Source of the DNA: Gemmatimonadota bacterium
Lineage (GTDB): Bacteria; Gemmatimonadota; Gemmatimonadetes; Gemmatimonadales; GWC2-71-9
Assembly (NCBI GenBank): GCA_003222205.1
Contig: QHVC01000044.1
Coordinates: 2,510 to 66,509 of the forward strand
Direction of reading: 5' to 3'
DNA length: 64,000 nt
The first letter of the stretch is position 1, and each line of letters opens with the position of its first letter. Shown in pieces: positions 1 through 40,368 of this stretch. The translations under genes were made by a program, and so were the position numbers. A model generated the notes under the pieces. It was not told the origin of the DNA. It saw only the letters and a program-made list of their open reading frames with translations, and did not search any database.

Positions 1-586
1 CCAGGGCCGTCAGCTGGTACAGCTTCTTGCGCCACCCCGACGCCACGTCGCGCACGGCGGCGATGTCGGGGACCAGCCCCAGGATCAGGAACACCGTCGA
101 GACCGTGAAGTACGTCCCGATCGCGAACTCGTCCCAGATGAGCGGCGACTTGAAGTTGGGCCACAGGCCGCGCTCGTTGGGGTACGGGAGCGTCCAGTAG
201 AAGTACCACTGGCGGCCGATGTGGATCAGCGGGAACAACGCCGCCGTCATCACGGCGAACACGGTCATCGCTTCGGCGGTGCGGTAGATCGCGGTGCGCC
301 ACCCCGAGCGAAAGAGAAACAGAATCGCCGAAATCAGGGTGCCCGAGTGGGCGATGCCCACCCAGAACACGAAGCAGGTGATGAAGACGGCCCAGTACAC
401 CGGGTGCGAATAGCCCGCCAGCCCCAGGCCATAGCGCAGCAGGTACAGCAGGCAGATGATCCCGATCGCGAGCAGGGTGACCGCCGCGCCGAGCAGCAGG
501 AAGTAGCCTTTTCCCGGGTTGCCCAGCGTGCGCGCGATGGTGCGCGTGACGAAATCGTAGGTGACGCGTCCCGACGGCTGGGCCAT
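1..586 (-). CDS. actC: Alternative complex III subunit ActC (NrfD/PsrC-like polytopic membrane subunit); 3' end cut by window edge
   Basis: Not in ORF track because it runs off the window. Own minus-strand translation from ATG at 586..584: MAQPSGRVTYDFVTRTIARTLGNPGKGYFLLLGAAVTLLAIGIICLLYLL...HPVYWAVFITCFVFWVGIAHSGTLISAILFLFRSGWR... The helices are hydrophobic and NrfD-like. It starts 2 nt after the actB stop. Confidence 0.8.
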   Translation of the reverse strand, partial: MAQPSGRVTYDFVTRTIARTLGNPGKGYFLLLGAAVTLLAIGIICLLYLLRYGLGLAGYSHPVYWAVFITCFVFWVGIAHSGTLISAILFLFRSGWRTAIYRTAEAMTVFAVMTAALFPLIHIGRQWYFYWTLPYPNERGLWPNFKSPLIWDEFAIGTYFTVSTVFLILGLVPDIAAVRDVASGWRKKLYQLTAL

Positions 587-11277: not shown

Positions 11278-12043
11278 GCACGCCCTGCGTCACGTTGCCC
11301 GATTCGATGGCCGCCCGATCGCGCTGGCTGAGATCGAGCAGATCCAGCTTCGCCACCGCATTCTCGGGGATCCGCAGCGGCTGGCCCGTCCCGAATACGA
11401 ACCGCTCGACCCCCACGGTAGCGATCAGATGGGCGAGGTGGTCCTCGGGCGGGCCCCAGATCCACGCGATGTCCCACCACACGCGCGCCTGCTCGGCGGC
11501 CGTCGAGCCCCAATGCACTTCCTCGATGAACGGGCGGTCGGCATGGGTGATGACCAGCCGCACGTCGGGATCGCTGCGCAGCAGCGCCCGCACCGAGGCC
11601 GCCGCGAGCTCGGGCACGAGGTCATGCGGGTGCCGCTGGCGCGCGTCCTCCAGCCGCACCGTCATCAGTAGCGGCAGCTTCGCGGCCCCGCACGCGGCGG
11701 CGAGCACCCGCATTTCGTCGCCGACGGGGGCGAGCCCGAAGTGGTGCGGGTCGCAGCGGACCGCCGGGGCGCCGCGCGTGGCGGCGTCGCTCAGCGCTTC
11801 TTCCCAGTGCGGCAGTGCCGGGTGCACGCACGGCACCGGCTCGAGGCGCTCGTGCGCGTCCGCCGCCTCGTACAGCCAGGTGTTGCCCTCCGTCGGGTCG
11901 CGCCAGAACAGACTCGGAAGGTGCGTCACCCACGCCGTGTCGATGCCGGTGCGATCCATCGCGGCGAGCAGCGCCTCCGGCGAGGTTCCGGGCACGCGGC
12001 GCCACGGGTAGGCACCGAGGAAGCCGTTGACGTCGAGGCGCAT
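11270..12043 (-). CDS. Amidohydrolase-2 (TIM-barrel metal-dependent hydrolase) family protein
   Basis: Starts MRLDVNGFLGAYPW at 12043 with an ATGA overlap on the upstream stop. 257 aa, ending ...FVFGTGQPLRIPENAVAKLDLLDLSQRDRAAIESGN. The ORF-track 5' extension to 12649 lies inside the upstream gene. Confidence 0.7.
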   Translation of the reverse strand: MRLDVNGFLGAYPWRRVPGTSPEALLAAMDRTGIDTAWVTHLPSLFWRDPTEGNTWLYEAADAHERLEPVPCVHPALPHWEEALSDAATRGAPAVRCDPHHFGLAPVGDEMRVLAAACGAAKLPLLMTVRLEDARQRHPHDLVPELAAASVRALLRSDPDVRLVITHADRPFIEEVHWGSTAAEQARVWWDIAWIWGPPEDHLAHLIATVGVERFVFGTGQPLRIPENAVAKLDLLDLSQRDRAAIESGNVTQGVLG

Positions 12044-28869: not shown

Positions 28870-30612
28870 GTGCTCCTCCGCGGCCGGCTCTCCCGATCCC
28901 TCTTCGCGACGTCCGCCCTCTCGCTCGCCGCCGCGGTGGTCGCCTACCTCATCGCGCCGCACGAGCTCTGGTCCCGAGCCCTGATCGCGGGATTGCTGGT
29001 CATCGCGGGCGGCTTGCTCGGCCTGCAGGTGGTGTCCACCCTCCGCGCCGACCGCCGCTATGCGACGCTGCTCGAGCGCGAAGTCGCCGCGCAGACCCGC
29101 TCGCTGATGGATTCGCTCGCCGCCACCGCCGCCGCCGAGCACAACGTCCGCTCGCTGATGGAGGCCGTCCCCGACGCCATCGTCGTGCTCGACCCGGAAG
29201 GCCGGGTCCTCGACCAGAACCCCTCGGCACGCGCCATGGTCGCGGTGCATCCGCCGCCGGGGACGCCCCCCGGCCACTCGGCGTTCGAGTCTCTCGATCG
29301 GCACGCCGCCGCGCACGTGCGGACGAACCTCGACGCGGCGTTTCGCGGCGAGGTGCGCCGGTTCGAGGTCCCCTTCACCCACACGGACGGCGGCATGGGG
29401 ATGCGCAGCGTCATCTACGCCCCCGTGCGCGAGGGCGGGAAGATCCGCAAGGTCCTGGCCCTCGTGCGCGACGTGAGCGAGCAGCGGCGTACCGATGCGC
29501 AGCTGCAGCAAGCCGAGAAGCTCGCGGCGATGGGCCAGCTCGTCAGCGGCGTCGCCCACGAGATCAACAATCCCGCGGCGATCATCTCCGGATTTGCCGA
29601 GACCCTGCTCCTCGGCGACATGGACGAGGAGCAGCGCGACATGGTGCGGATGATCCGCGACGAGGCCCAGCGCATCGGCCGCATCACGTCCAACCTCCTC
29701 GCGTTCGCGCGCAGCGGCGGCAAGGAGCGGGGCCTCGTCGACCTGAACGACATCGTGCAGCGCACCTTCGCCCTGCGCTCCTACTACCTCACGACGCTGA
29801 ACATTCTGGTGAAACTCGATCTCGATCCCGACAGCCCCAGGACCTGGGCGAACGGGTCGGAGATGCAGCAGCTGCTGCTCAACCTGTTGATCAACGCCGA
29901 GCAGGCGTTGCTGACCGTGCCCCCGCCCCGCAGCATCGTGCTCCGCACCCGGACGGTCGACCAGAATGTGCTGCTGCAGTGTGTGGACACGGGCCCGGGC
30001 GTGGCGCCGGAGCTCCGGTCCAAGATCTTCGATCCCTTCTTCACAACGAAGCCCGAGGGCGTGGGCACAGGCCTCGGCCTCTCCATCTGCTATGGCATCG
30101 CCCGCGACCATGGGGGCAGTATCTGGGTGGACTCCACGCCCGGCGCCGGCGCGACGTTCACGGTGTCGCTCCCACGCGACCCCCGCGCTGCGCCGCGGCC
30201 CGCCGCTCCCCCGCCGGAGCCGGCCACGGCGCCCGCCCCGCACCTCAAAGTGCTCGTCGTGGACGACGAGGTCGGGCTGCGACACGCCGTGGTCAGTTTC
30301 CTGGAGCGCCGCGGGTTCGCAGCGCTCGGCGTGGGCGACGGACGGGAGGCGCTGGAGACGCTGGGGCGCGAGTCCCCGCCCCCGGACGTCATCGTCACGG
30401 ACGTGCGGATGCCCGGCATGGGAGGCCGGGAGTTCCTTGCGCGCCTGCGCGCCGAGCACCCCCAGCTCGCACGCCGGCTCGTGTTCTCCACCGGCGACAC
30501 CTTCGCACCAGAGACTGCGGCGCTGTTGCAGGAAGCCGGGGGCGCGGTGCTCGTGAAGCCCTTCGATTTCTCGCAGCTCGAGACCGTGATCCGCGCTATC
30601 GCCGCGGCCTGA
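28870..30612 (+). CDS. Hybrid sensor histidine kinase / response regulator
   Basis: Two N-terminal TM segments. PAS-like SLMEAVPDAIVVLDPEGRVLDQNPSARAMV, H-box VSGVAHEINNPAAII, N/G boxes LLNLLINAEQAL, DTGPGV and GVGTGLGLSI. C-terminal receiver KVLVVDDE...VTDVRMPGMGG. GTG start. Confidence 0.85.
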   Translation: MLLRGRLSRSLFATSALSLAAAVVAYLIAPHELWSRALIAGLLVIAGGLLGLQVVSTLRADRRYATLLEREVAAQTRSLMDSLAATAAAEHNVRSLMEAVPDAIVVLDPEGRVLDQNPSARAMVAVHPPPGTPPGHSAFESLDRHAAAHVRTNLDAAFRGEVRRFEVPFTHTDGGMGMRSVIYAPVREGGKIRKVLALVRDVSEQRRTDAQLQQAEKLAAMGQLVSGVAHEINNPAAIISGFAETLLLGDMDEEQRDMVRMIRDEAQRIGRITSNLLAFARSGGKERGLVDLNDIVQRTFALRSYYLTTLNILVKLDLDPDSPRTWANGSEMQQLLLNLLINAEQALLTVPPPRSIVLRTRTVDQNVLLQCVDTGPGVAPELRSKIFDPFFTTKPEGVGTGLGLSICYGIARDHGGSIWVDSTPGAGATFTVSLPRDPRAAPRPAAPPPEPATAPAPHLKVLVVDDEVGLRHAVVSFLERRGFAALGVGDGREALETLGRESPPPDVIVTDVRMPGMGGREFLARLRAEHPQLARRLVFSTGDTFAPETAALLQEAGGAVLVKPFDFSQLETVIRAIAAA

Positions 30613-33235
30613 GCGGCACCTCGACCCCGGACGCGCCGACGCCATTGACCGTCGGGGTCAGCGTGAGGCGGACCGGCACGGCGTCCATGCCCAGCACCTC
30701 GAGCGCCCGCGGATCCACGGTGAGATCGTAGTCCCCCGGCTTGACGCCCAACACATAGAACCCGCCGTCACTGAAGGTCGTAAACGTACGACGCGCACCG
30801 GTCCGCCGCTCCGTCAACGTCAACGTCACGCCCGGCACACCGTGGCCGTCGGCGACCACTCGGCCTTCGACCACACCGGCCTGCACGATCGGGACGTCGA
30901 GCAGGGTGAAACGGTTCGGGCCGGGGACCAGACTCACGGACCCGTACGCGGGGACGGTCAGCGGCGACTCCAGGCTCAGCGAGTCCACCGACACGAGGAT
31001 TGTCTCGAACGGCACGACATCCCATACACGGAAAACGCCGTTGGAATCGGCGGCGGCGCCGCGGGTCCCCACTTGCACCCGGACCCCCGGCAAGAGCGGC
31101 TCGCCCGGGTCGAGCCGGCCGTTGCCGTTCTGGTCGAGAAACACCCGCCCGGCGACTCCCGAGCGCTCCAACGAAGGCCCTGGGGCCGTCCGCACCAGCC
31201 CCGTCGCCCGGTCCCACAGCAACGAGCCCTGCACGAACTGGGTGCCGGTGGCCGCGCCGCCCGCCCGGGCGTCCACAGCCGTGACGCTCCGGAGGGCCGG
31301 GAGGACTGAAGTCAGGAAGAGATGATAGACCGCGCCGGGGCTGCCCCGCGTCCACGATGTCCCGAGCTCCAACCGCACCCCCGGCCACAGCGGCCTGCCG
31401 GCGAAGGCTTCGAAGCTCGCCAGGCGCGCCGGTCCGTCCAGCGCTTCACTCACCGCTCCGCGCAGCCATACCGATCCCAGTAGCCGACCCCACGACGACC
31501 GCGGCAACACGTAGGTGGAGAGGGCCATCGCGGTTCGGGCCGGCTGGCCTGGATCCCAGCGGGTGCGCACCTCCGGGAGGAGCCGCATTTCGCCCGTCTG
31601 AACCGAGGCGCCGAGACGCGCTTGCGTTTGGGCGCCGGCGGTGGTCAGCGTGCGTTCGAGGGCCCCATCGAAGAAAAAGTACCCCGCGCTCGGCATCGGC
31701 CGGACGAACGCGTCGAGCGTCCACCGGGCCGTGCGACCCGCCAGCGTGAGGATCGGGGCGCGCGTGCCGGTCGCGAAGCGCGTGTAGCCACCCGTCAGCC
31801 GCAGGTCCACCGTGGGCTCGAACCGCACCTCGCCCGTCGCGAACGCGCCCTGCACCGCCATCGCGTCGACCGCCCACGCGTTCGTGGGGTTCGTCGTGAC
31901 GCCGATGTACGGATGGGACAGGTCCCCGAGAGAATCGCGCCAGAACCGGTCGTACCCGAGCTGCACGGTCCAGCGGTCGCCGCCGCCGTAGCGGAGATCG
32001 AGGTTCGCGACGCTCCGGCACTGCAGCGTCCGACAGGAGCCGCCCGACGCGCCGTATTCGAAGCGCTTGGCCGGGAGCAGCTCGCTCAAGACGCGGTACG
32101 TGCGATTGAACTGACGCAGCTCCCCCAACGGACCGTAGGCGAGGAAATCCACGGGGTTCTCACCGTAGCGCACCGGCAGCTCGATCGCGTACCGCCCCCC
32201 GGCGTCGGCCGAATCCACGGCCACCAGCTCCCCGCCGCGATACGCTTCGATCGACCACCCCGGCGCCAACTCTCCCACGTACTGCTGGCTGCCGATGAGC
32301 GACGGGCGGACGAACGGCGCGTTGGTGAGGGACAGGCCGCGGATCTGAAACAGGTTCGGGCCCGTGGTGACGCCGTCCCCAACGCGCACCTGCCGGAGCC
32401 ATGACCGCTCCTCCCATACCCCCGTCCACGACCCCTCCAGCCGGGCTGCGCCCGAGTGCACGGGACCGAGACTCGCGACGCCCAGTTCCAGCGACCCGCC
32501 GAGCAGATCCGCACCCAGCGTCGCCGTGTAGGTAGCGCCCTGCACCGGCGCCTCGCTCGGCGCCAGCACCGAGTAGTCGAGGACGAGCCCGTCGAGGCGC
32601 CGACGTTCCGCGGGAAGCGCGAGCTCGGCGCTCTGCAACTCGACGCGGCGCAGGAACGCCTCGCGCGCCGCCTGGCGCTGCGCTCGCAGCCCCGCGGGGA
32701 ACACCGTGGGATCCACGATCGCAACCGTCAGGTCGGTCCAGTCGACGAGGATCGGGGTGCTGAAGAGGTCGCCGAGCCGCTCCGCGCCCACATACAAGAG
32801 CCCATCGCGAAACAGCAGAAACTCAGGTTCAATCCGCACCCGGCGCTCGCCCAGGATCATGGTGTCGCGATGCGCGTCGATGACCAGCCGGCGACCGCCG
32901 GGATTCATTACCGCATCGAGCCGGCCCTCGGGGGAAAGCCGGTACGCGACCTCACCGAGCTGAAGGACTTCCGTGATCGGGACGAGCGCCTCGGTTCGCG
33001 CGCGGAACGCCTGCACCGTGCGACTCGCCAAGCGCCCCATGCGCAGCTCGACGATCACCGCCTCCACGGAATCGGCGCCAGCGACGGTGTCGCTCATGGC
33101 GGAGGAGACAAACCGGACCGGACTGCCGTTGGGCGCCGTCGGGGCTACAGAGCTGCCGCCGAGTCGAGGCCCTGCGAAGCCGGCCAGCAGCACGAGCGGC
33201 GCAACAACGAACGCCGTGCTCCGGCCGGTACGCAT
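30596..33235 (-). CDS. Outer-membrane usher-like protein of the pilus operon (879 aa)
   Basis: Signal MRTGRSTAFVVAPLVLLAGFAG. The middle region GELAPGWSIEAYRGGELVAVDSADAGGRYAIELPVRYGENPVDFLAYGPLGELRQFNRTY reads like an usher plug domain, flanked by amphipathic beta-strand sequence. The C-terminus has two Ig/CarboxypepD_reg-like modules (GRVFLDQNGNGRLDPGEPLLPGVRV; GRVVADGHGVPGVTLTL...GFYVLGVKPGDYDLTV). Last gene of the operon, 3 nt after subunit C. Confidence 0.55.
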   Translation of the reverse strand: MRTGRSTAFVVAPLVLLAGFAGPRLGGSSVAPTAPNGSPVRFVSSAMSDTVAGADSVEAVIVELRMGRLASRTVQAFRARTEALVPITEVLQLGEVAYRLSPEGRLDAVMNPGGRRLVIDAHRDTMILGERRVRIEPEFLLFRDGLLYVGAERLGDLFSTPILVDWTDLTVAIVDPTVFPAGLRAQRQAAREAFLRRVELQSAELALPAERRRLDGLVLDYSVLAPSEAPVQGATYTATLGADLLGGSLELGVASLGPVHSGAARLEGSWTGVWEERSWLRQVRVGDGVTTGPNLFQIRGLSLTNAPFVRPSLIGSQQYVGELAPGWSIEAYRGGELVAVDSADAGGRYAIELPVRYGENPVDFLAYGPLGELRQFNRTYRVLSELLPAKRFEYGASGGSCRTLQCRSVANLDLRYGGGDRWTVQLGYDRFWRDSLGDLSHPYIGVTTNPTNAWAVDAMAVQGAFATGEVRFEPTVDLRLTGGYTRFATGTRAPILTLAGRTARWTLDAFVRPMPSAGYFFFDGALERTLTTAGAQTQARLGASVQTGEMRLLPEVRTRWDPGQPARTAMALSTYVLPRSSWGRLLGSVWLRGAVSEALDGPARLASFEAFAGRPLWPGVRLELGTSWTRGSPGAVYHLFLTSVLPALRSVTAVDARAGGAATGTQFVQGSLLWDRATGLVRTAPGPSLERSGVAGRVFLDQNGNGRLDPGEPLLPGVRVQVGTRGAAADSNGVFRVWDVVPFETILVSVDSLSLESPLTVPAYGSVSLVPGPNRFTLLDVPIVQAGVVEGRVVADGHGVPGVTLTLTERRTGARRTFTTFSDGGFYVLGVKPGDYDLTVDPRALEVLGMDAVPVRLTLTPTVNGVGASGVEVPLRPRR

Positions 33236-33238
33236 CGA

Positions 33239-33760
33239 TCAGTAGGACAGCGACACGATGATCGTCCCCTGGTAGATGCCGGGTTTCGCCGCCGCTGCAG
33301 GGGTCACCGTGCCGCCGATCCAGATGTACATGTTCGGGTTGGCCGGCGGGCCGAGGCGCCCTACCGTGCCGACGCTGGGGTTGAACGTGGTGGCGCCCGC
33401 CGGGCTGTTGGTGGCGCGGCGCCACAGCGCCGATGTCGCGCTGAAGGCGATCGGCATCGTCGAACCGGGTTGCGCCTGGATGTTGGTGAGCTGGGTTGGC
33501 AGCGTGAAGCTGATGTTCACGAAGGCGTTGGCGTTCCCTGTGACCTGCCATTCGCCGGCCGCGGCCTGGTTGGGTGCAACCGCGGTCGCCACGCCCTTGG
33601 GCACCGACCCGAAGTTCAGCTGCGAGAGCGTCGCAATCGTCATCCCCACGGTCACGACCACCGCGTCGGCCGAGATGGTGGCGGCGTTCTGCCCTGCCGC
33701 CGGGTGTGTCCCCGCGGCGGCCAGGACGCCGAGCACGATCCCCAGCCGGCGCGGTGTCAC
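33239..33760 (-). CDS. Pilus subunit C, DUF4402/SCPU-like secreted protein
   Basis: GTG 33760 forms a GTGA overlap with the chaperone stop. Signal RRLGIVLGVLAAAG. Shares LNFGSVPKGV, AGEWQVTGNANAFVNISFTLP and the C-terminal KPGIYQGTIIVSLSY with the two paralogs. Confidence 0.6.
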   Translation of the reverse strand: MTPRRLGIVLGVLAAAGTHPAAGQNAATISADAVVVTVGMTIATLSQLNFGSVPKGVATAVAPNQAAAGEWQVTGNANAFVNISFTLPTQLTNIQAQPGSTMPIAFSATSALWRRATNSPAGATTFNPSVGTVGRLGPPANPNMYIWIGGTVTPAAAAKPGIYQGTIIVSLSY

Positions 33761-34620
33761 GGAACCCGCACCGCGACCGAATCCCGAACGACCGCCGCCG
33801 GCAACACGACCGCCGGCTCGAGATCCTCCCGATCCGTGTCCACGGTCAGCTTCAGCCAATAGCGCCCGGCCGGCAACACGCCGACCGGGGCCACGTACCG
33901 CGGCTCCATCACGTAGTAGACACCGATCGGAAAGGCGAACCGTGCGCGCTCCCGACCCGCGGAATCCACCAGCGTCCCGCGCACGGTACCGATGAACGCC
34001 GCGTTACCCTGGCGCTCGAGACGCGGCCGGACCTCGAGCGAGTCGCCGACGACGGCGGCGCGCAGCCGGGTCACCGCGACTCCCGTCCGCACCGGACCCT
34101 TGCGGTAGTTGACCCCGATGATGGTCCGGACTTCGAGCGTCAAGCCGATCTTGATCCCCGTGTCGGCGACGCCCGTCACCGGCACCACGCCGCCCTTGAC
34201 GGCGATCACGAGCCGCAGCCAGTACTCGCCGTCGGGCAACCCCGGTGGGGGCGAGGCGAGGAGCCGGATCGTCTGGCGCTCCCGCGGCGCCACCGTGAGG
34301 CGGCGAGGGAACGCCTGGACCCAACGCGCCGCCGACGGTTGACCGGAATCCGCTGCGGCGGGCGGCAGCACCATGCGCCCGGCCGAATCGCTGGTCGGCA
34401 TGCCGTGCAGCCGCAGCCCGCCGAGGGAGTCCGTCTCGGGGTAGCCGAAGAAGGTCGCGATCGTGACCTCGGCCGCCTCCGTGTTCGGGTTGTACAGCGT
34501 GACGACACCGCTGTTGGACCGGGAGTTCATGAACACTGCGTGGGGCGCGACCATCACGCCCTGCGCGGCGAGTGGTGCCGCGACGGCCCCGAGCACGACG
34601 AGCCAAGAGCGCCGGATCAT
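33757..34620 (-). CDS. Periplasmic pilus chaperone-like protein (PapD-like, 287 aa)
   Basis: Signal MIRRSWLVVLGAVAAPLAAQG. The mature N-terminus VMVAPHAVFMNSRSNSGVVTLYNPNTEAAEVTI matches the chaperone pattern (v.v.P..v.f....g.v.l.N.....v.v). Beta-rich throughout. ATGA overlap with the subunit B stop. Confidence 0.55.
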   Translation of the reverse strand: MIRRSWLVVLGAVAAPLAAQGVMVAPHAVFMNSRSNSGVVTLYNPNTEAAEVTIATFFGYPETDSLGGLRLHGMPTSDSAGRMVLPPAAADSGQPSAARWVQAFPRRLTVAPRERQTIRLLASPPPGLPDGEYWLRLVIAVKGGVVPVTGVADTGIKIGLTLEVRTIIGVNYRKGPVRTGVAVTRLRAAVVGDSLEVRPRLERQGNAAFIGTVRGTLVDSAGRERARFAFPIGVYYVMEPRYVAPVGVLPAGRYWLKLTVDTDREDLEPAVVLPAAVVRDSVAVRVP

Positions 34621-35087
34621 GGGAAGTACGCCACTGTCAGCGCCAGCGTGCCCGTGTAGGGGCCCGCCCGCTGTGAAGTGCTGGGCTGCGCCGTCCCGCC
34701 GATGAAGACGGAGCCGCGCCCATTCTTGTTCAGCGTTGCCAGGAAGGGTTGGTTCGGATCGAAGGCGACCTGGCTGCCGATCGCCTGAGTGCTGGAGTAG
34801 CCGGCATCGCTGCCGCCGAACGTCAGCGGCATCGTCGCGGGGGCCGGCCCCGTCATCACCAGCGGCAGCGCGAACGTCAGCAGCACCTGGTTGCTCTTGG
34901 CGCCGACGAGGTCAAATTGGCCGCTGTTGGTCGGATCCGTTCGCAAGATGACGCGCGGCACCCCTGGGAGGACCGTGCCAAACGTGAGGTCCCGCACCCG
35001 CGAGACCGTCAGCGGACGGCCTTGAGCAGCGAGAGGCGCGACCCCGGACCCCAGGGCCAGCAGGAGAAGCGGCAACGACCGGATCAT
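34617..35087 (-). CDS. Pilus subunit B, DUF4402/SCPU-like, lacking the N-terminal extension
   Basis: Signal MIRSLPLLLLALGSGVAPLAAQ. LTFGTVLPGV, SGQFDLVGAKSNQVLLTFALP and C-terminal RAGPYTGTLALTVAYFP. GAGGG lies 6 nt upstream of the ATG. Confidence 0.6.
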   Translation of the reverse strand: MIRSLPLLLLALGSGVAPLAAQGRPLTVSRVRDLTFGTVLPGVPRVILRTDPTNSGQFDLVGAKSNQVLLTFALPLVMTGPAPATMPLTFGGSDAGYSSTQAIGSQVAFDPNQPFLATLNKNGRGSVFIGGTAQPSTSQRAGPYTGTLALTVAYFP

Positions 35088-35115
35088 GGCTTGCCCTCGG
35101 CGCCTCCACTCGTGA

Positions 35116-35156
35116 CTGCGCCGGCAGAAGGAGCCTCAGCCCCCCTGCCGGCGCAG
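35116..35156 (-). terminator. Intra-operon stem-loop after the major-subunit gene (partial terminator / mRNA-stabiliser candidate)
   Basis: Perfect inverted repeat CTGCGCCGGCAG (35116-35127) / CTGCCGGCGCAG (35145-35156) with a 17-nt loop (35128-35144). Located between the subunit A stop (35183) and the subunit B start (35087). Confidence 0.5.
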
Positions 35157-35182
35157 CGCCAGCTCGACGCCGAGGTACTCGC

Positions 35183-35677
35183 TTAGTACGTGACCGTCAG
35201 CGTGACCGAAGCCGTGTAGACGCCCGCCGGCTGGTTGCTCGCCGGGTTGACCTGGCCACCGACCCACACAAACAGCGCGCCTGTACCGCTCAGACTCGTG
35301 GACGCGCCAGCCACCGGGAACGGCGTCGCGGCTGCCGCGTTGTTCGCAGTATTGTAGCTGCCCGTGAAGTTCGCAATCGGGAGCAGGTTCAAGCCCGACT
35401 GCAGGTTAATCGGCAGCGTGAGCGACAGGTTCACCAGCGTGCTCGCCTGACCCGTCACGTCCCAACGACCGGCTGTCGCGTCGGTCGTGGCGATCGTCTT
35501 AGCGACGCCAGGGAACACGTTCCCGAAATTCAGCGACTGGCCCGTACTCACGTTGATCGGCTGCTGTACGGTCGCCGTCGCCGTGATATTGGCGTTGTTG
35601 ACCTGCGCCTGGGCAGCGGCCGTCGCGAGGACGGTCAGCGCCAGGGCGGCCAGCGTCAGCTTGGAAGCGGTGTTCAT
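35183..35677 (-). CDS. Pilus subunit A (probable major subunit), DUF4402/SCPU-like
   Basis: Start at MNTASKLTLAALALTVLATAAAQA (ATG 35677, preceded by AGAGGGA). LNFGNVFPGV, AGRWDVTGQASTLVNLSLTLP and C-terminal PAGVYTASVTLTVTY. First gene of the operon, followed by a perfect 12-bp stem-loop. Confidence 0.65.
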   Translation of the reverse strand: MNTASKLTLAALALTVLATAAAQAQVNNANITATATVQQPINVSTGQSLNFGNVFPGVAKTIATTDATAGRWDVTGQASTLVNLSLTLPINLQSGLNLLPIANFTGSYNTANNAAAATPFPVAGASTSLSGTGALFVWVGGQVNPASNQPAGVYTASVTLTVTY

Positions 35678-36049
35678 CGTTATCCCTCTCTTTATCGAGC
35701 TGTGGAACTGGTTTGCATCACTCGGAGCCCTTCCGGCGGCCCCGTTGCCGTGCCGCAACAGGGGCAAGGGGCGTGCCATGAGTGGCCAGTTCCTAGTCAT
35801 GTGTCAATTTCTTTGACGAACCCCGCCCCGAGGGGGAGCCGAAGATAGTATCGAGAGTTACGAATAACAAATGGTGACCGTCGTCAAAAAAGATTACAGT
35901 TTCGAGTCTTCCCCAGCGCTGACCATTTTTCATAACGATAACAGTAACAACAGTATAGCTTGATGAGCCTGCCGGTACGCACAATGCCTTGGTGGGGGTC
36001 AGAATCGGAGCACCTACCCTCTCAGGAGCTGGCTGTGGCGGATCGGCGG
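35678..36049. promoter_or_regulatory. Low-GC divergent control region between the pilus operon and a small secreted-protein gene
   Basis: Visibly AT-rich stretch (…gaataacaaatggtgaccgtcgtcaaaaaagattacagtttcgag…cattttcataacgataacagtaacaacagtatagc…) in an otherwise very GC-rich window. Contains direct AACAGTA repeats, and TTGACA on the minus strand at 35807..35802. No convincing -10 element found. Confidence 0.4.
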
Positions 36050-36367
36050 ATGAGCTGGACCCTCAAGACCCTGGCCCTGCTGGCGATCCCCGCTATCGGG
36101 ACTGCCCTTCAGCCGCGCGCCGCAGAAGCCCAAGCTCGTGGCACTCTGCAAGCCGTAGCCACTGTGATTGATACGCGCCCGAGCTTTGACGGACTTCGGG
36201 CCGCTCAGGCAGCCGTCTCCACCTGGAGCGGCGCAGTTGTGGCCCACGGCGATACTGTACAGACAGTGGCGCAAGTCTCGGTCGAGCCGAGACACACGGT
36301 TGCACCCGAAGCGCCCCGTTTGCAGCCCGGCGCGTTGGTCGTCACGGTGGATTTTCTCAGAAACTGA
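36050..36367 (+). CDS. Small secreted hypothetical protein (105 aa)
   Basis: Start taken at MSWTLKTLALLAIPAIGTALQPRAAEAQA (signal-peptide-like), which is Met31 of ORF 35960..36367. No family recognised. Divergent from the pilus operon. Confidence 0.4.
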   Translation: MSWTLKTLALLAIPAIGTALQPRAAEAQARGTLQAVATVIDTRPSFDGLRAAQAAVSTWSGAVVAHGDTVQTVAQVSVEPRHTVAPEAPRLQPGALVVTVDFLRN

Positions 36368-36523
36368 TCCCGAGCTTCTGCCGGAGCGTGGGAGGAAGTA
36401 GCGGGATGGCGTGCTTGATGGGCACCGATAGCGCGAAGCCGGGCGCCTGCGGCAACCCGGCACGATGGATAGAGATCACTTCCCCATTGGCGTTGAAGAC
36501 CGGGCGGGGCCGCCGCCCCAGCG

Positions 36524-36778
36524 TCAACGCGGCGGCGAAGCGACGGCCTTGTGGCGGCGATCGGGAAGCAGACGGCGCACGACCAGACTGCGTCGCAGCG
36601 CCAGCCGGCGGTCGGCGCGCACGCGGCGATCACCGCTGCTGCGACGCTCGGCGGCGAAGGGGAGCGCGACGCTGCGGCGCTCGCGCAGCCCGCGCCGATC
36701 CACGCCGGAGCGCCGGTCGGTCAGCGCACGGCGTTCGGGGGATTGTCGGCGGTCGGAGGCTGCGATCGGGCGCTGCAT
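36524..36778 (-). CDS. Small arginine-rich [DE]RR-repeat protein, paralog 1 (84 aa)
   Basis: MQRPIAASDRRQSPERRALTDRRSGVDRRGLRERRSVALPFAAERRSSGDRRVRADRRLALRRSLVVRRLLPDRRHKAVASPPR. Nine [DE]RR motifs; 26 of 84 residues are Arg. AGGAG lies 5 nt upstream of the ATG. Third positions are mostly G/C. The overlapping plus-strand ORFs are an alternative reading. Confidence 0.45.
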   Translation of the reverse strand: MQRPIAASDRRQSPERRALTDRRSGVDRRGLRERRSVALPFAAERRSSGDRRVRADRRLALRRSLVVRRLLPDRRHKAVASPPR

Positions 36779-36854
36779 ACGATCTCCTGCATAAACAAGG
36801 AAAAAGGGCCCGGAAGTTCCGGGCCCCAATAGTACCGACCGTGGCAGGTCGGGG

Positions 36855-37238
36855 CTAGTGCTCCTTCAAGCGCCCGTCGATGCCCTCGATCACTTCCCGC
36901 GGCGGACCACGCCGCTCCCAGCCGCGGTGCCGGCCGCGATCGCGCGCCTCCCACACCCCGCGTACGGCGACGCGGTCACCTTGCGGCGTGACGAAGATGC
37001 GGACGATCTCGTCCGGGCCGCGCCGCGCCCAGATGACGCGGTTCGGACCGCTCTGCTGGACCCGGTACACGACCCAGCCCCGTTGTACCAGCACCTCGCG
37101 CGTCACCACGACGACGCGCTCGGGGGGGGCGACGTAGACGTACTCGGCCGGCTCCGCGTAGACGATCTCGGCCCGGGTGTACCCCGGGACGCAGGCCGCC
37201 GCGGCCAGCAGCGGCATGAGGCCAATCGTTCGTAGCAT
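36855..37238 (-). CDS. Small lipoprotein (127 aa), function unknown
   Basis: Lipobox MLRTIGLMPLLAAAAC. GGAGGA lies 7 nt upstream of the ATG. Sequence is non-repetitive. Confidence 0.6.
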   Translation of the reverse strand: MLRTIGLMPLLAAAACVPGYTRAEIVYAEPAEYVYVAPPERVVVVTREVLVQRGWVVYRVQQSGPNRVIWARRGPDEIVRIFVTPQGDRVAVRGVWEARDRGRHRGWERRGPPREVIEGIDGRLKEH

Positions 37239-37341
37239 AGAGTGTCCTCCGTGTCAGGAAGACTCCGCCCGATGGGACGGGGTAACGCCCGTCGCGTTAA
37301 GCCGAGCGTGACGCCCTCGGTGCGGTGTATTATCGGAAACC

Positions 37342-38391
37342 ATGGACAACATCGCGCACACGCTGGTCGGCGCGGCGTTGGGGCGGGCCGTGGCCGACCG
37401 TCGTGCTCCCTACCCCGCCCTGGTCGGGGCGTTCGCCGCCAATCTGCCGGACATCATCGAACGGATCGTCGCGCCGGCCGGCCGCCGTTTCGACTACCTC
37501 ACGATGCACCGCGCGATCACGCACTCGTTGGTCGGCGCCGCCGGCCAGATCGCCGTGCTGACGCTGGCGGTGGGCGGCGCCACGACGTGGTGGGCCAGAC
37601 GCCAAGGGCGCGCCGCGCCGTCGTGGCGGTGGATCCTCGCGCTCATCGCCGCGACCGTCTCGAGTCATCTGGCGATGGATTGGCAGGGCTCGTACGGCCT
37701 GCGGCCGTTCCTGCCGTGGAACGACCGGTGGTACTACGGCGACTGGGTCGCGATCGTCGATCCCTTCTTCTGGCTGGTACCGCTCGTGGCCCTGGTGTGG
37801 GGAGAGCGACTGCACCCGGTCAGGCTGCTCTTCTTCGCGACCGCCCTCGCCGGGTGCAACGGGGTGGTACTCTCGTACGCTGAGGCCGCGTCGTGGCTGG
37901 GACCGGCGTGCGTTGCCGTCTCACTCGCAGGGCTCGCCGGCTGGACACGCCCACAAGTCGGCCCCGGCGCCCGACGCGCGATCGCGACCGGAGCGTGCGC
38001 GCTCCTCGTGATCTACACAATGGCGCAGGCGGTCGCGAGCATCCCGGTCAAGCGCGCCACGCGCGCGGCCGCCGAGCGGCGCTTCGGCGCCGGCGCCCAA
38101 TGGGCGACGCTGACCGACGTGGGGCGACCGTTCGACTGGGAGCCGGTGGTCGCGAGCCGCGACACCGTGGCCGGACCGGATTGGGCGTTGGCGCGGCATC
38201 TCGACGATCCCCGAGTGCGCGCGGCGCTGGCGACCGAGCGCGGCCAGGCGATCGCCGCATTCGCGCGGTTTCTCGTGGCGGACGTGGACTCGAGCGGGAC
38301 CGGAGTGACGGTGTTCTTGCGGGACGCGCGCTACGCGCGCACGGGACGGCGAGGTTGGGCAGCGGTGACGGTCAGGCTGGCGGGGGAGTGA
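37342..38391 (+). CDS. Membrane-bound metal-dependent hydrolase, YdjM/DUF457-like
   Basis: MDNIAHTLVGAALG...MHRAITHSLVG...SSHLAMDW: His-rich motifs within multiple TM helices. 349 aa. Confidence 0.7.
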   Translation: MDNIAHTLVGAALGRAVADRRAPYPALVGAFAANLPDIIERIVAPAGRRFDYLTMHRAITHSLVGAAGQIAVLTLAVGGATTWWARRQGRAAPSWRWILALIAATVSSHLAMDWQGSYGLRPFLPWNDRWYYGDWVAIVDPFFWLVPLVALVWGERLHPVRLLFFATALAGCNGVVLSYAEAASWLGPACVAVSLAGLAGWTRPQVGPGARRAIATGACALLVIYTMAQAVASIPVKRATRAAAERRFGAGAQWATLTDVGRPFDWEPVVASRDTVAGPDWALARHLDDPRVRAALATERGQAIAAFARFLVADVDSSGTGVTVFLRDARYARTGRRGWAAVTVRLAGE

Positions 38392-38593
38392 CGGACTCGC
38401 GGCGGTCGGCTGCGCTGCGCCGCAAGCCGAACGCGCGCCGCTCGCGGAGCCGGCGGTCGTGGCCGGACCGGCTGTCGGCAGCTACCCACTGAATCAGGAG
38501 CCGCCGGTCGGCGACGCGGCGGTCGGCGCCCCCGCGCCGGTCGGCGTGGAGACGTCGTTCACTGGTGCGCTGCTCGACGAAGCCGTCGCTCAT
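38372..38593 (-). CDS. Small arginine-rich [DE]RR-repeat protein, paralog 2 (73 aa)
   Basis: MSDGFVEQRTSERRLHADRRGGADRRVADRRLLIQWVAADSRSGHDRRLRERRAFGLRRSAADRRESVTPPPA. Seven [DE]RR motifs; 19 of 73 residues are Arg. ATG start, G/C-rich third positions, no clear SD. Its 3' end overlaps the YdjM-like gene by 20 nt (convergent). Confidence 0.4.
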   Translation of the reverse strand: MSDGFVEQRTSERRLHADRRGGADRRVADRRLLIQWVAADSRSGHDRRLRERRAFGLRRSAADRRESVTPPPA

Positions 38594-38661
38594 ACGACAC
38601 CAATCTGTGACCTGCGGCGCGTTCCGGCCAGCGGCGGGCGTCCGTTAGATTCCCCCGCGCC

Positions 38662-40368
38662 ATGATTGCCGACACCCCTCCGGTCGATGTCCTCGCCGCC
38701 GTTACGCCGGCGCTCGAGCCGGCGTTCCGCCTCGACCAGCTCGTGGCGCTGTCGCCGGAGCGCGCCCTGTACAAGGCCTGGGATCGAGCCTTGAAGCGGT
38801 TTGTGGCGCTGCGGCTACACCTGGTCGCGGGCTCACCCGGACGCGAGTGGTTCCTGCGGGAAACGGAGACCTTGGCCGCGCTCGATCACCCCGCGGTGCG
38901 GCACGTGTACGCGCTGGGCGAGGCCGCGGGCTTCGCGTATCGGACGGCGAACTGGATCGACGGGGAGAGCCTCGCGGAGGCGATCCGCCGGGGCGTCCGA
39001 CCGATCCCCTCGGTGATGTCCATCGTCCGTGACCTGCTGGGCGCCCTCGAGCACGCGCACGCCCACGGCATCATCATGCGGCGGATCGCTCCCACCACGC
39101 TGATGCTCGATCTCGCGGGGCGCGCCATCATCACCGATCTGCGGTATTCCAACTGGTGCCTGGCGCACGCGCCGGCCGACTTCGGCCCAGGGGCGGCGTT
39201 CGGCGCGCCGGAAGTGCGCGGCGGCGGCGCGGGGGATCCGGCGGCGGACGTCTACACCGTCGGCGCCCTCGTCTATTTCGCGCTGACGGCGCAGGAGCCC
39301 GCCGCCGATCCGGAGGCGATCGTCCCGCCTCGGCGACTGCGCGGGACGATTCCCGCAGCGGTCGAGCGCGTGATCCTGCGGGCGTTACGCGCCGCGCCCG
39401 GCGACCGCTACTTCACCGCCACCGAGATGCTCGAAGATTTCGTGGCCGACGCCGGCACGTTCCGGGCGCCGACGGCGGAGCCGCAGCACGGCGAATCGGG
39501 TTTCGAGCGGCGTCTGCGCCGCGCCCTGGGCGACGACTACGAGCTGCTCGAAGAGATCGGCGCGGGCGGCTTCGGGCGCGTGTACCGCGCGCGCGATCTG
39601 GGGCTGGAGCGCGATGTCGCCATCAAGGTGCTCCACCCTTCGCTGACGGCGGACCTCGGCGTCGTGGAGCGGTTTCAGCGGGAGGCGCAGCTGGCGGCGC
39701 GGCTGCGCCACCCGAACATCGTGAGCATTTACGACATCGGCGGGCGGGCGGGCCTGCAGTGGTATACGATGGAAATGGTCCCCGGCGCGAGCCTGGCGCA
39801 GCTGACCGCGACGCACGGCGCCCTACCGGTGGACCGCGTCGTCCGGATGCTCGACGAAGCCCTCTCCGCGCTGGAGCAGGCCCACGCCCTCGGCCTCGTG
39901 CACCGCGACCTGAAGCCGGAGAACCTGCTGCTCGAGCCCGATGGCCGCGTCCGCATCACGGACTTCGGCCTCGCGCTCGCCCTGCGCGGCGACGGCCGCT
40001 ACGGCGGTGCCACCTCACGCAGCGGCACCCCGCAATTCGCCAGTCCCGAGCAGCTGCTCGGCGAGAAGGTGACGCCCCGCACCGATCTGTACTCGCTGGG
40101 CGCCGTGGGCTACTTCGCCCTGCTGGGGCGGCCGCCGTTCGAGGGGCCCACCGTGGAGGCGATCCTGGCGAAGCAGACGACGGATGCCGTCCCTGACCTG
40201 CACGCCGAGCGGCCGGCGGTGGAGCGGGAGCTCGAGGTCGTGCTGCGCCGGGCGGTCGCCAGCCGGCCCGAGGAGCGGTTCCCCACGGCGGCCGCGTTCC
40301 GGTCGGCGTTGCGGGACGCGACCGGTGGCTGGTGGCGGCGCCTCTGGAAGCTGTTGCGGCCGGACTGA
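38662..40368 (+). CDS. Tandem Ser/Thr protein kinase: N-terminal pseudokinase domain + C-terminal canonical Hanks-type kinase domain
   Basis: C-terminal domain: IGAGGFGRVYRA, VAIKVL, HRDLKPENLL, DFG, SPE. N-terminal domain: kinase-like fold signatures (FGAPEV, DVYTVGALVYFAL) but no G-loop, VALR instead of VAxK, MRRIAPTT instead of HRDLKPxN, and DLR instead of DFG. Confidence 0.85.
   Translation: MIADTPPVDVLAAVTPALEPAFRLDQLVALSPERALYKAWDRALKRFVALRLHLVAGSPGREWFLRETETLAALDHPAVRHVYALGEAAGFAYRTANWIDGESLAEAIRRGVRPIPSVMSIVRDLLGALEHAHAHGIIMRRIAPTTLMLDLAGRAIITDLRYSNWCLAHAPADFGPGAAFGAPEVRGGGAGDPAADVYTVGALVYFALTAQEPAADPEAIVPPRRLRGTIPAAVERVILRALRAAPGDRYFTATEMLEDFVADAGTFRAPTAEPQHGESGFERRLRRALGDDYELLEEIGAGGFGRVYRARDLGLERDVAIKVLHPSLTADLGVVERFQREAQLAARLRHPNIVSIYDIGGRAGLQWYTMEMVPGASLAQLTATHGALPVDRVVRMLDEALSALEQAHALGLVHRDLKPENLLLEPDGRVRITDFGLALALRGDGRYGGATSRSGTPQFASPEQLLGEKVTPRTDLYSLGAVGYFALLGRPPFEGPTVEAILAKQTTDAVPDLHAERPAVERELEVVLRRAVASRPEERFPTAAAFRSALRDATGGWWRRLWKLLRPD

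Follow-up and report, generated by a model that had tools for sequence, protein, structure and literature searches.

An undescribed family of small arginine-rich repeat proteins, predicted to be disordered, in Gemmatimonadota

Arginine-rich-motif RNA-binding peptides, such as that of phage lambda N, are single arginine clusters of 10–20 residues that fold on one RNA hairpin. Chlamydia Hc1 and Hc2 and the tails of actinobacterial HU are rich in lysine and alanine, and some actinobacterial nucleoid proteins are phosphorylated by Ser/Thr kinases. Arginine-enriched mixed-charge domains are roughly charge-balanced. They consist of R/D and R/E repeats in eukaryotic nuclear-speckle proteins, and their function is set by charge pattern and multivalency, not by a fold (10.1101/771592, PMC9324279). 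Arginine-serine domains (SR or RS domains) are recognized by a combined serine and arginine content of at least 70%, and the rare bacterial RS domains accompany DEAD-box helicases (PMC9479744). Here we describe two small [DE]RR-repeat genes, open reading frames 1 and 2 (ORF1 and ORF2), in contig QHVC01000044.1 of a Gemmatimonadota bacterium (assembly GCA_003222205.1). The whole stretch of 64,000 nucleotides that we analyzed is called the window, and all coordinates are positions within it unless another contig is named. That both ORFs are real, conserved protein-coding genes is, in our judgment, very probable.

36524..36778, minus strand: ORF1, a type-1 [DE]RR hexapeptide-repeat gene (84 aa; ORF and translation)
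38372..38593, minus strand: ORF2, a type-2 [DE]RR hexapeptide-repeat gene (73 aa; ORF and translation)

The ORF1 product contains 26 arginines in 84 residues, nine [DE]RR motifs, 11 RR pairs and a net charge of +18; the ORF2 product contains 19 arginines in 73 residues, seven [DE]RR motifs, 8 RR pairs and a net charge of +8. Every acidic residue of ORF1 (9/9) immediately precedes an RR pair, and successive RR pairs are spaced 6, 6, 6, 6, 11, 6, 6, 5, 6 and 6 residues apart, a series that indicates a hexapeptide repeat in two blocks. Among 20,000 shuffled controls with composition kept, the mean [DE]RR count was 0.83 for ORF1 and 0.72 for ORF2, with a maximum of 5. When the 544 six-frame ORF segments of at least 60 amino acids in the window were ranked by [DE]RR density, ORF1 and ORF2 came first and second. 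The translations and shuffles bear out the arginine and motif counts and the minus-strand coordinates given in a first-pass annotation of this DNA, which had been made from the letters alone. Its claim that the two are paralogues also holds, both in the alignment and by BLASTP (42% identity, E = 5e-9).

Since G+C content is 71% across the window, long ORFs occur in many frames, and GC3 (G+C at third codon positions) is unable to tell sense from mirror frames here. We therefore compared the ORFs with relatives, the orthologous regions being the metagenome contigs L001–L006 and L008 (one lineage), L007 and L009. The [DE]RR frame of ORF1 is open in the window, L003, L007, L008 and L009, and both [DE]RR frames stay open in every related lineage compared; loss of this frame in relatives had been named at the outset as grounds for abandoning the prediction. 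Pairwise differences in the [DE]RR frame showed an excess at the third codon position in all comparisons (for positions 1/2/3, for example, 8/14/26 and 17/19/38 in ORF1 and 12/12/31 in ORF2), and the ratio of nonsynonymous to synonymous differences (pN/pS) was 0.47–0.71 for ORF1 and 0.36–0.57 for ORF2. At least two different CGN codons (two to four) were used across lineages in 17 of the 21 invariant arginine columns of ORF1 and in 12 of 16 for ORF2. Finally, the family profile introduced below matched the [DE]RR frame at no fewer than 20 independent loci (E values from 1e-11 to 1e-25). The substitution pattern and the CGN variation, together with a negative result from Tandem Repeats Finder, agree with the earlier view that the constraint acts on the protein rather than on the DNA.

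Two observations pull the other way. First, when codon usage is scored as log-odds, with 13 long window genes as the training set, the mirror frame on the plus strand comes out ahead, at 0.24 and 0.21 bits per codon for ORF1 and ORF2, against 0.10 and 0.08 for the [DE]RR frames. Second, the type-1 start position, which is ATG in the window, L007 and L009, reads ATA in the L003 lineage (~9021), ATC in L109 (~1522, minus strand) and AGG in L024 (~5456). The Shine-Dalgarno sequence is kept upstream in L003 and L109, and L109 has no canonical in-frame start upstream, which suggests non-AUG initiation or unusual start selection in the type-1 genes of L003, L109 and L024.

The codon preference for the mirror frame is also an argument that the true genes lie on the plus strand, in the frame that reads as RRS repeats (36465..36794) or in the mirror frames (36551..36832 and 38459..38665), with the [DE]RR repeats as their shadow. 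It probably accounts for the choice of the antisense ORF by gene callers in L001, L002 and L004, and the RRS frame shows a pN/pS similar to that of the [DE]RR frame because the two have their wobble positions in common. The mirror frame, however, has a pN/pS of 1.4–3.3 and is broken by new stop codons, in L009 over ORF1 and in L007 over ORF2, while the RRS frame, which the first-pass annotation had named as an example of a rival frame, is not kept as an ORF: it is interrupted in L007 and L009 over ORF1 and in the window and L003 over ORF2, and its codon-usage score is -0.21. In the ORF2 region each alternative frame is interrupted by stop codons in at least one lineage. The three antisense products are absent from a collection of 15 billion proteins, and a strong match to the family profile is restricted to the [DE]RR frame. 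Only this frame passes all three tests of coding, every rival frame failing at least one, and we regard genes on the plus strand as barely credible. That the repeat is instead a DNA or RNA element (a structured RNA, say, or a row of sites for a binding protein) with incidental ORFs has next to no chance of being right: GAnCGnCG does return every 15–18 nucleotides and the region is very GC-rich, but Tandem Repeats Finder found no DNA tandem repeat in it, Rfam gave no match above chance (a single sub-threshold chrB-b at E = 0.58, outside the ORFs), amino acids are invariant while third codon positions vary freely, indels among orthologues are whole codons, and protein conservation survives at a DNA identity of ~52–55%. 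Both the plus-strand genes and the DNA or RNA element are essentially excluded.

The antisense ORF annotated in place of the type-1 gene is 134 aa long and lies on the minus strand at 11662..12066 in L001 and in L002 and at 6197..6601 in L004. The family is probably misannotated systematically in high-GC genomes.

To place ORF1 and ORF2 among known proteins, we performed profile searches of several collections. An exhaustive search of 1.84 billion representatives returned 93 proteins (E <= 1e-3), nearly all of 58–130 aa, and all of these that were inspected consisted of [DE]RR repeats with a hydrophobic segment (IPVxxDRR or VAVVVERR, for example) in the middle. A second profile search matched 145 clusters in a 5.8-billion collection. 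Among the best 120 of these 145, none had a Pfam domain, and every named one was a "hypothetical protein" from a metagenome-assembled genome (MAG) of Gemmatimonadetes or Gemmatimonadales. A DNA-pattern scan of GTDB genomes, filtered by hmmsearch, gave 6 true members among the 120 matches listed, all in Gemmatimonadota MAGs; because these come from an incomplete list of matches, the taxonomic picture is a sample and not a census. ORF2 itself is deposited as PYP63978.1 and identical entries, a hypothetical protein of Gemmatimonadetes MAGs (locus tag DMD37_04270, between DMD37_04265 for YdjM and DMD37_04275 for the kinase), and the exact ORF1 sequence is absent from the 15-billion-protein collection, whether begun at the ATG or at an upstream TTG.

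Against Pfam, neither ORF had a credible match at E <= 1 (the sole line was HisZ-like, E = 0.59), and NCBIfam gave no match. A 22-member family profile had no match at E <= 10 among 177,635 PDB sequences. The first-pass annotation could assign the proteins to no family, and these searches leave that statement standing; we also found nothing in the literature describing this [DE]RR-repeat family.

In the 22-protein alignment the RR pairs stand in register, with 12 arginine columns invariant and 7 more at least 90% conserved. Over 97 proteins, the spacing from one RR pair to the next was 6 residues in 454 instances, 5 in 139 and 11 in 63; the residue preceding RR was D in 382 instances and E in 287, and RR was followed by S or A and then G. 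These counts define the repeat unit as [DE]RR[SA]Gx. The architecture is two hexapeptide blocks around a short hydrophobic center, hydrophobic-x-V-x-x-[DE]RR. We defined the family by profile A3 as proteins of ~60–110 aa with 8–11 RR pairs in register at six-residue spacing and a hydrophobic center, and both ORF1 and ORF2 fall within it, in register with 20 other members. Orthologues were found for ORF1 (P0001, P0003 and P0004) and for ORF2 (P0006 and P0007). On these alignments and searches, it is an undescribed family which, so far as sampled, is restricted to Gemmatimonadota wherever the organism is named.

Two further relatives of ORF1 are irregular. In P0002 the lipoprotein is fused in frame to the last two-thirds of ORF1, as if by a deletion between ...WERRG and ...VDRRG; P0005 matches ORF1 over its first 26 residues and is entirely different thereafter. 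Recombination between repeat units could account for both, as could chimeric assembly.

The family contains two old paralogue types. We assigned type 1 or type 2 with profiles built from three clear orthologue sets, which place ORF1 in type 1 and ORF2 in type 2. Type-1 proteins have a net charge of +11 to +18, one additional C-terminal repeat and a tail reading PDRRxK; type-2 proteins have a net charge of +8 to +15 and a C-terminal tail with the consensus KDRRGSGL[TS]FxD[LVF]TP[SA]. A threonine falls within the last nine residues in 45 of 61 type-2 proteins and in 22 of 69 type-1 proteins. In L015, a type-2 gene (2..220) and a type-1 gene (221..460) stand head to tail with zero gap, an arrangement that fits an origin by tandem duplication and makes a joint function of the two types possible.

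Structure prediction with AlphaFold2 and family alignments gave a mean predicted local distance difference test score (pLDDT) of 62.4 for ORF1 and 60.9 for ORF2, with a predicted template-modeling score (pTM) of 0.16 for both. The models are nearly all coil, and the hydrophobic center (residues 31–40) alone reaches a pLDDT of ~77. Both proteins are thus probably intrinsically disordered with one possible contact segment, consistent with the disorder suggested at first reading. The repeat proteins contain no Cys or His-rich site, and no signal peptide was seen on reading their sequences. Similar repeats form an N-terminal tail before a putative membrane helix in proteins annotated as Marinimicrobia TlpA thiol-disulfide reductases (P0040); from this and the lack of a visible signal peptide, the repeat proteins are likely to be cytoplasmic.

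Next, we characterized four genes around ORF1 and ORF2:

36357..36505, minus strand: C-terminal remnant of an FHA-FHA-transmembrane-trypsin gene (blastn against L003)
36855..37238, minus strand: gene for a 127-aa putative lipoprotein, with a signal-like N-terminus ending AAAAC (by reading only)
37342..38391, plus strand: YdjM-family membrane protein gene (Pfam YdjM, E = 1e-24)
38662..40368, plus strand: pseudokinase-kinase Ser/Thr kinase gene (568 aa; Pfam Pkinase, E = 8e-59, in two stretches)

In the N-terminal Pkinase stretch the motifs VAIK, HRD and DFG read VALR, MRR and DLR, and this degeneracy makes the label "pseudokinase-kinase" reasonable. The kinase gene is divergent from ORF2 across a gap of 68 nucleotides (38594..38661), and between ORF1 and ORF2 lie the YdjM gene and the putative lipoprotein gene. 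The first-pass annotation had described the same tandem kinase, the same divergent gap and the bracketing of the YdjM gene by the two repeat genes, and on all three points we found it correct. The 3' ends of type-2 and ydjM genes overlap convergently by 14–20 nucleotides in three lineages (38372..38391 in the window, 20 nucleotides; 7394..7413 in L003; 8227..8240 in L140).

Directly after the type-1 gene in relatives, 32 nucleotides beyond its end, comes the FHA-protease gene. When complete it encodes 656 aa with the architecture FHA-FHA-transmembrane-coiled-coil-trypsin (Pfam FHA twice and Trypsin_2). Comparison of the window with L003 by blastn showed a clean gap of 1840 nucleotides (9292..11131 in L003), with the junction at window position 36505, 19 nucleotides past the ORF1 stop. 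It removes almost the whole FHA-protease gene, leaving about its last 47 codons, and is either a real deletion or an assembly artefact.

The gene orders in the loci compared (strands as forward or reverse within each row) were as follows:

Window, L003 and L007: kinase (reverse), type 2 (forward), YdjM (reverse), then lipoprotein, type 1 and FHA-protease (all forward; FHA-protease deleted in the window)
L013 and L109: repeat gene (forward) between the kinase gene (reverse) and the DUF4402 cluster (L013) or a DUF4402 gene (L109)
L011: kinase and YdjM (both reverse), repeat gene (forward)
L033 and L140: type 2 (forward) between kinase and YdjM (both reverse)
L024: kinase (reverse), then lipoprotein and type 1 (both forward)
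L121 and L080: type 1 followed by FHA-protease, the pair divergent from YdjM; in L121 the kinase gene comes after YdjM, and the L080 contig ends inside ydjM

The kinase gene is adjacent or near in L001–L007, L011, L013, L024, L033, L109, L121 and L140, and in all Gemmatimonadota loci that are long enough the repeat gene lies between the kinase gene (often together with ydjM) and the FHA-protease gene or DUF4402 cluster. In L003, L007 and L024, too, the putative lipoprotein gene precedes the type-1 gene. The intergenic region between the kinase and type-2 genes is also conserved in the alignment. Adjacency retained through such rearrangements argues for a functional link. The link to the kinase suggested at first reading thus finds real support in gene order, across many Gemmatimonadota lineages, and we put a functional tie to the kinase module at about even.

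In the window, the DUF4402 cluster occupies 30596..35800 on the minus strand and comprises three DUF4402 genes, a gene of 287 aa that matches nothing in Pfam, and a CarboxypepD_reg gene of 879 aa. Clusters in other loci likewise contain genes of ~285 aa and ~870 aa, and the order is kept in L001, L013, L080 and L140. The cluster resembles a chaperone-usher-like fiber locus; we found nothing on DUF4402 in the literature. A small ORF at 35960..36367 (plus strand) has a signal-like start and a product ending ...VVTVDF[LS]RN. It has no Pfam match, and a similar-looking counterpart was found by eye in L140 (9391..9663, minus strand), beside the DUF4402 cluster of this distant relative; it is likely a real gene of the fiber-like cluster. 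Between the first DUF4402 gene and this small secreted-protein ORF, G+C content falls to 0.54–0.56 (35700..36150), against ~0.71 for the window.

The sequences upstream of the two repeat genes contain several candidate expression signals:

36784..36788, minus strand: AGGAG Shine-Dalgarno sequence, 5 nucleotides ahead of the ORF1 ATG (36778)
36805..36827, minus strand: terminator-like GC-rich hairpin with a T-run, between the lipoprotein stop and the ORF1 Shine-Dalgarno sequence
36826..36858, minus strand: two-part promoter-like motif of ORF1, CTAGCC (36858..36853), 18 nucleotides, TACTATTGG (36834..36826)
38600..38631, minus strand: promoter-like motif of ORF2, CTGGCC (38631..38626), 18 nucleotides, CAGATTGG (38607..38600)

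The AGGAG lies where the first-pass annotation had placed it, and GCAGGAG is invariant in the alignment of the window, L003 and L007. A terminator scan resolved the hairpin into 10 pairs, 8 of them G-C, with a folding energy of -20.5 kcal/mol (z = -3.9). The energies in L003 (-23.3) and L007 (-23.2) are similar, the top of the stem being altered yet paired, and the hairpin is limited to the window, L003 and L007 lineages and absent from others. Its role could be to terminate lipoprotein transcripts, to attenuate those of ORF1 or to stabilize the 5' end of ORF1 mRNA.

Upstream of type-1 genes in eight lineages we found an invariant C-CTAGCC, 18 nucleotides and TAnnWTnG(G), in which TA..T.G is invariant, whichever gene precedes. 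The second half of this motif recalls the TAnnTTTG element of Bacteroidetes promoters. In the alignment of the kinase/ORF2 intergenic region the blocks of the ORF2 motif are conserved at 5 of 6 loci; L109, which has a type-1 gene there, aligns poorly. No Shine-Dalgarno sequence is visible upstream of ORF2, and the motif ends 6 nucleotides ahead of the ATG, so that the ORF2 mRNA may have hardly any leader or none. A motif test across the window showed no enrichment of the two-part motif, and we thus claim it only as a conserved element of the repeat genes. The two-part motifs are putative promoters, with ORF2 nearly leaderless, and ORF1 and ORF2 would each be transcribed separately from its own predicted promoter. 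ORF1 had at first been described as following the lipoprotein gene; a simple operon partnership of the two is not supported, as the terminator-like hairpin and the promoter-like motif intervene.

On the other side of the ORF2 gap, TTAGATT (38645..38651, plus strand) stands 10 nucleotides before the kinase ATG at 38662 and is invariant in six lineages, its last base varying in two. It is a candidate -10 element for a kinase mRNA without a leader.

What might these proteins do? Our preferred reading, which we hold tentatively and at somewhat less than even probability, is that they are cytoplasmic, polycationic, disordered proteins that act together with the kinase module, probably through binding to a polyanion. 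The RR pairs would contact the polyanion multivalently, most likely RNA or DNA, and the acidic residue ahead of each pair would temper the charge. The repeat proteins would be substrate, adaptor or output of the neighboring cytoplasmic pseudokinase-kinase, with the FHA-protease joining in where present, and the module of kinase and repeat protein would stand at the head of the DUF4402 fiber-like surface cluster. Phosphorylation would tune binding by reducing the net charge, with the threonine-containing tail of type 2 as a candidate site.

Nucleic acid as the specific ligand is suggested by composition and by fusions: P0081 joins similar repeats to an XRE-type HTH domain (Pfam HTH_3), and in P0084 such repeats precede a CxxC...CxxC segment that we read as zinc-ribbon-like (no Pfam match). 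We consider this part of the reading possible but doubtful. The boldest version is that the repeat proteins are dedicated substrates or effectors of a Gemmatimonadota pseudokinase-kinase and FHA module, in which phosphorylation, or docking through the type-2 tail, switches RNA or DNA binding or condensates and thereby controls the DUF4402 cluster; as a whole this is unlikely.

Several points count against the polyanion-binding, kinase-linked reading. Polyanion binding is argued purely from composition. The type-2 tail is shortened in ORF2 of the window itself (DRRESVTPPPA), and type 1 has no conserved Ser/Thr. ORF1 is intact despite the loss of the FHA-protease gene, which indicates no strict dependence on an FHA-protease partner. 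Distant repeat proteins on metagenome contigs occur in unrelated settings, one with DAHP synthase and an epimerase and another with TPR-CHAT, so the kinase link may be lineage-specific.

Three other functions were weighed. The repeat proteins might be receptors for a second messenger such as cyclic di-GMP (c-di-GMP), bound by the arginine pairs and aspartate. R and D are abundant at fixed spacing, and the signaling locus lies beside surface-fiber genes; surface-fiber processes are often under c-di-GMP control. The spacing, however, is RR-x4-RR and not the RxxxR of PilZ: RR pairs stand 6 residues apart with no R(i)/R(i+4) pairs, and RxxD occurs only at a few period-5 units. No beta-barrel is predicted, there is no PilZ or other credible Pfam match at E <= 1, and the neighbors listed showed no gene for a cyclase or phosphodiesterase. 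We judge such receptors very unlikely.

Highly improbable, too, is that ORF1 is an arginine-rich leader peptide, on which stalling at the 26 arginine codons would sense arginyl-tRNA and control the FHA-protease gene. The short distance to that gene in relatives and the presence of a terminator-like hairpin nearby are what one would cite for it. Yet the sole hairpin is upstream of ORF1 and not downstream, type 2 has no gene downstream and converges on ydjM, and ORF1 remains intact where the downstream gene is deleted. The ORFs are also 73–84 codons long, and their non-arginine positions are conserved; the acidic residues, the spacing and the hydrophobic center would be needless for counting codons.

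The prospect of an exported or processed peptide, whether antimicrobial-like or a precursor that the trypsin-like protease would cleave and a nearby ABC-2 transporter export, is slimmer again. Arginine-rich peptides can be antimicrobial, and the neighborhood does hold genes for a trypsin-family protease and an ABC-2 transporter. Reading of the sequences showed neither a signal peptide nor a leader-core organization, though, and the related repeats of P0040 sit as an N-terminal tail ahead of a putative membrane helix. The protease domain follows a putative membrane helix and would therefore lie outside the cytoplasm, and its gene is dispensable in the window genome. Separately, we considered and rejected a lanthipeptide or other ribosomally synthesized and post-translationally modified peptide: the repeat proteins lack Cys and are poor in Ser/Thr, and no cyclase-like gene was noticed among the neighbors.

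If the repeat proteins do work with the kinase as proposed, they would be a bacterial counterpart of kinase-tuned, charge-patterned, arginine-rich disordered regulators, in a phylum for which molecular genetics hardly exists; nucleic-acid binding or phosphorylation-dependent condensates, if true, would extend such regulators to bacteria. If they do not, the work still corrects an annotation and adds a new domain of unknown function. Either way, this is a newly defined conserved small-protein family in a widespread, poorly studied soil phylum, whose genes are missed or mis-stranded by gene callers. Its strict [DE]RR[SA]Gx register is an unusually clean selected sequence "grammar" with no predicted fold, and its position beside the pseudokinase-kinase and FHA-protease makes it a testable candidate substrate or output of Gemmatimonadota Ser/Thr signaling.

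How, then, does the family compare with the systems described at the outset? Like arginine-rich-motif peptides, the repeat proteins are short, basic and predicted to be unfolded alone, and a GC-rich hairpin lies just upstream of ORF1; unlike them, they carry 8–11 evenly spaced RR pairs, and the hairpin is confined to the three lineages named above. The basic nucleoid proteins and tails are also small or tail-like, repetitive, cationic and disordered, but they are Lys/Ala-rich and built from other repeat units than [DE]RR, and searches of Pfam, NCBIfam and PDB showed no sequence similarity to them.

The nearest kinds by composition are arginine-enriched mixed-charge domains and RS domains, and the repeat proteins resemble both, though they fall outside the RS class and do not fit the composition of mixed-charge domains. 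With RS-domain proteins they share arginine-rich low complexity, and RS domains are linked to kinases. The partner residue, however, is Asp or Glu here and Ser there: R and S together (26 and 8 of 84 residues) come to ~40% in ORF1 and to less in ORF2, and the repeat-protein locus contains no helicase gene of the kind found with bacterial RS domains. With mixed-charge domains they share low-complexity sequence, here predicted to be disordered, in which arginine is interleaved with Asp or Glu. Those domains are regions of large eukaryotic proteins, whereas the proteins described here are free-standing, of 70–90 aa, and much more cationic, at a net charge of +8 to +18, with a strict six-residue period, two arginines per acidic residue and a conserved hydrophobic center. 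In ORF1, R and D/E together make up 42% of residues at a ratio of 26:9, so that the grammar is mixed-charge-like and the composition is not, and Pfam and PDB searches detected no homology to mixed-charge-domain proteins. What we report is thus an arginine-rich, charge-patterned family of predicted disordered proteins, not described before, that stands closest to the mixed-charge and RS domains, with differences from each.

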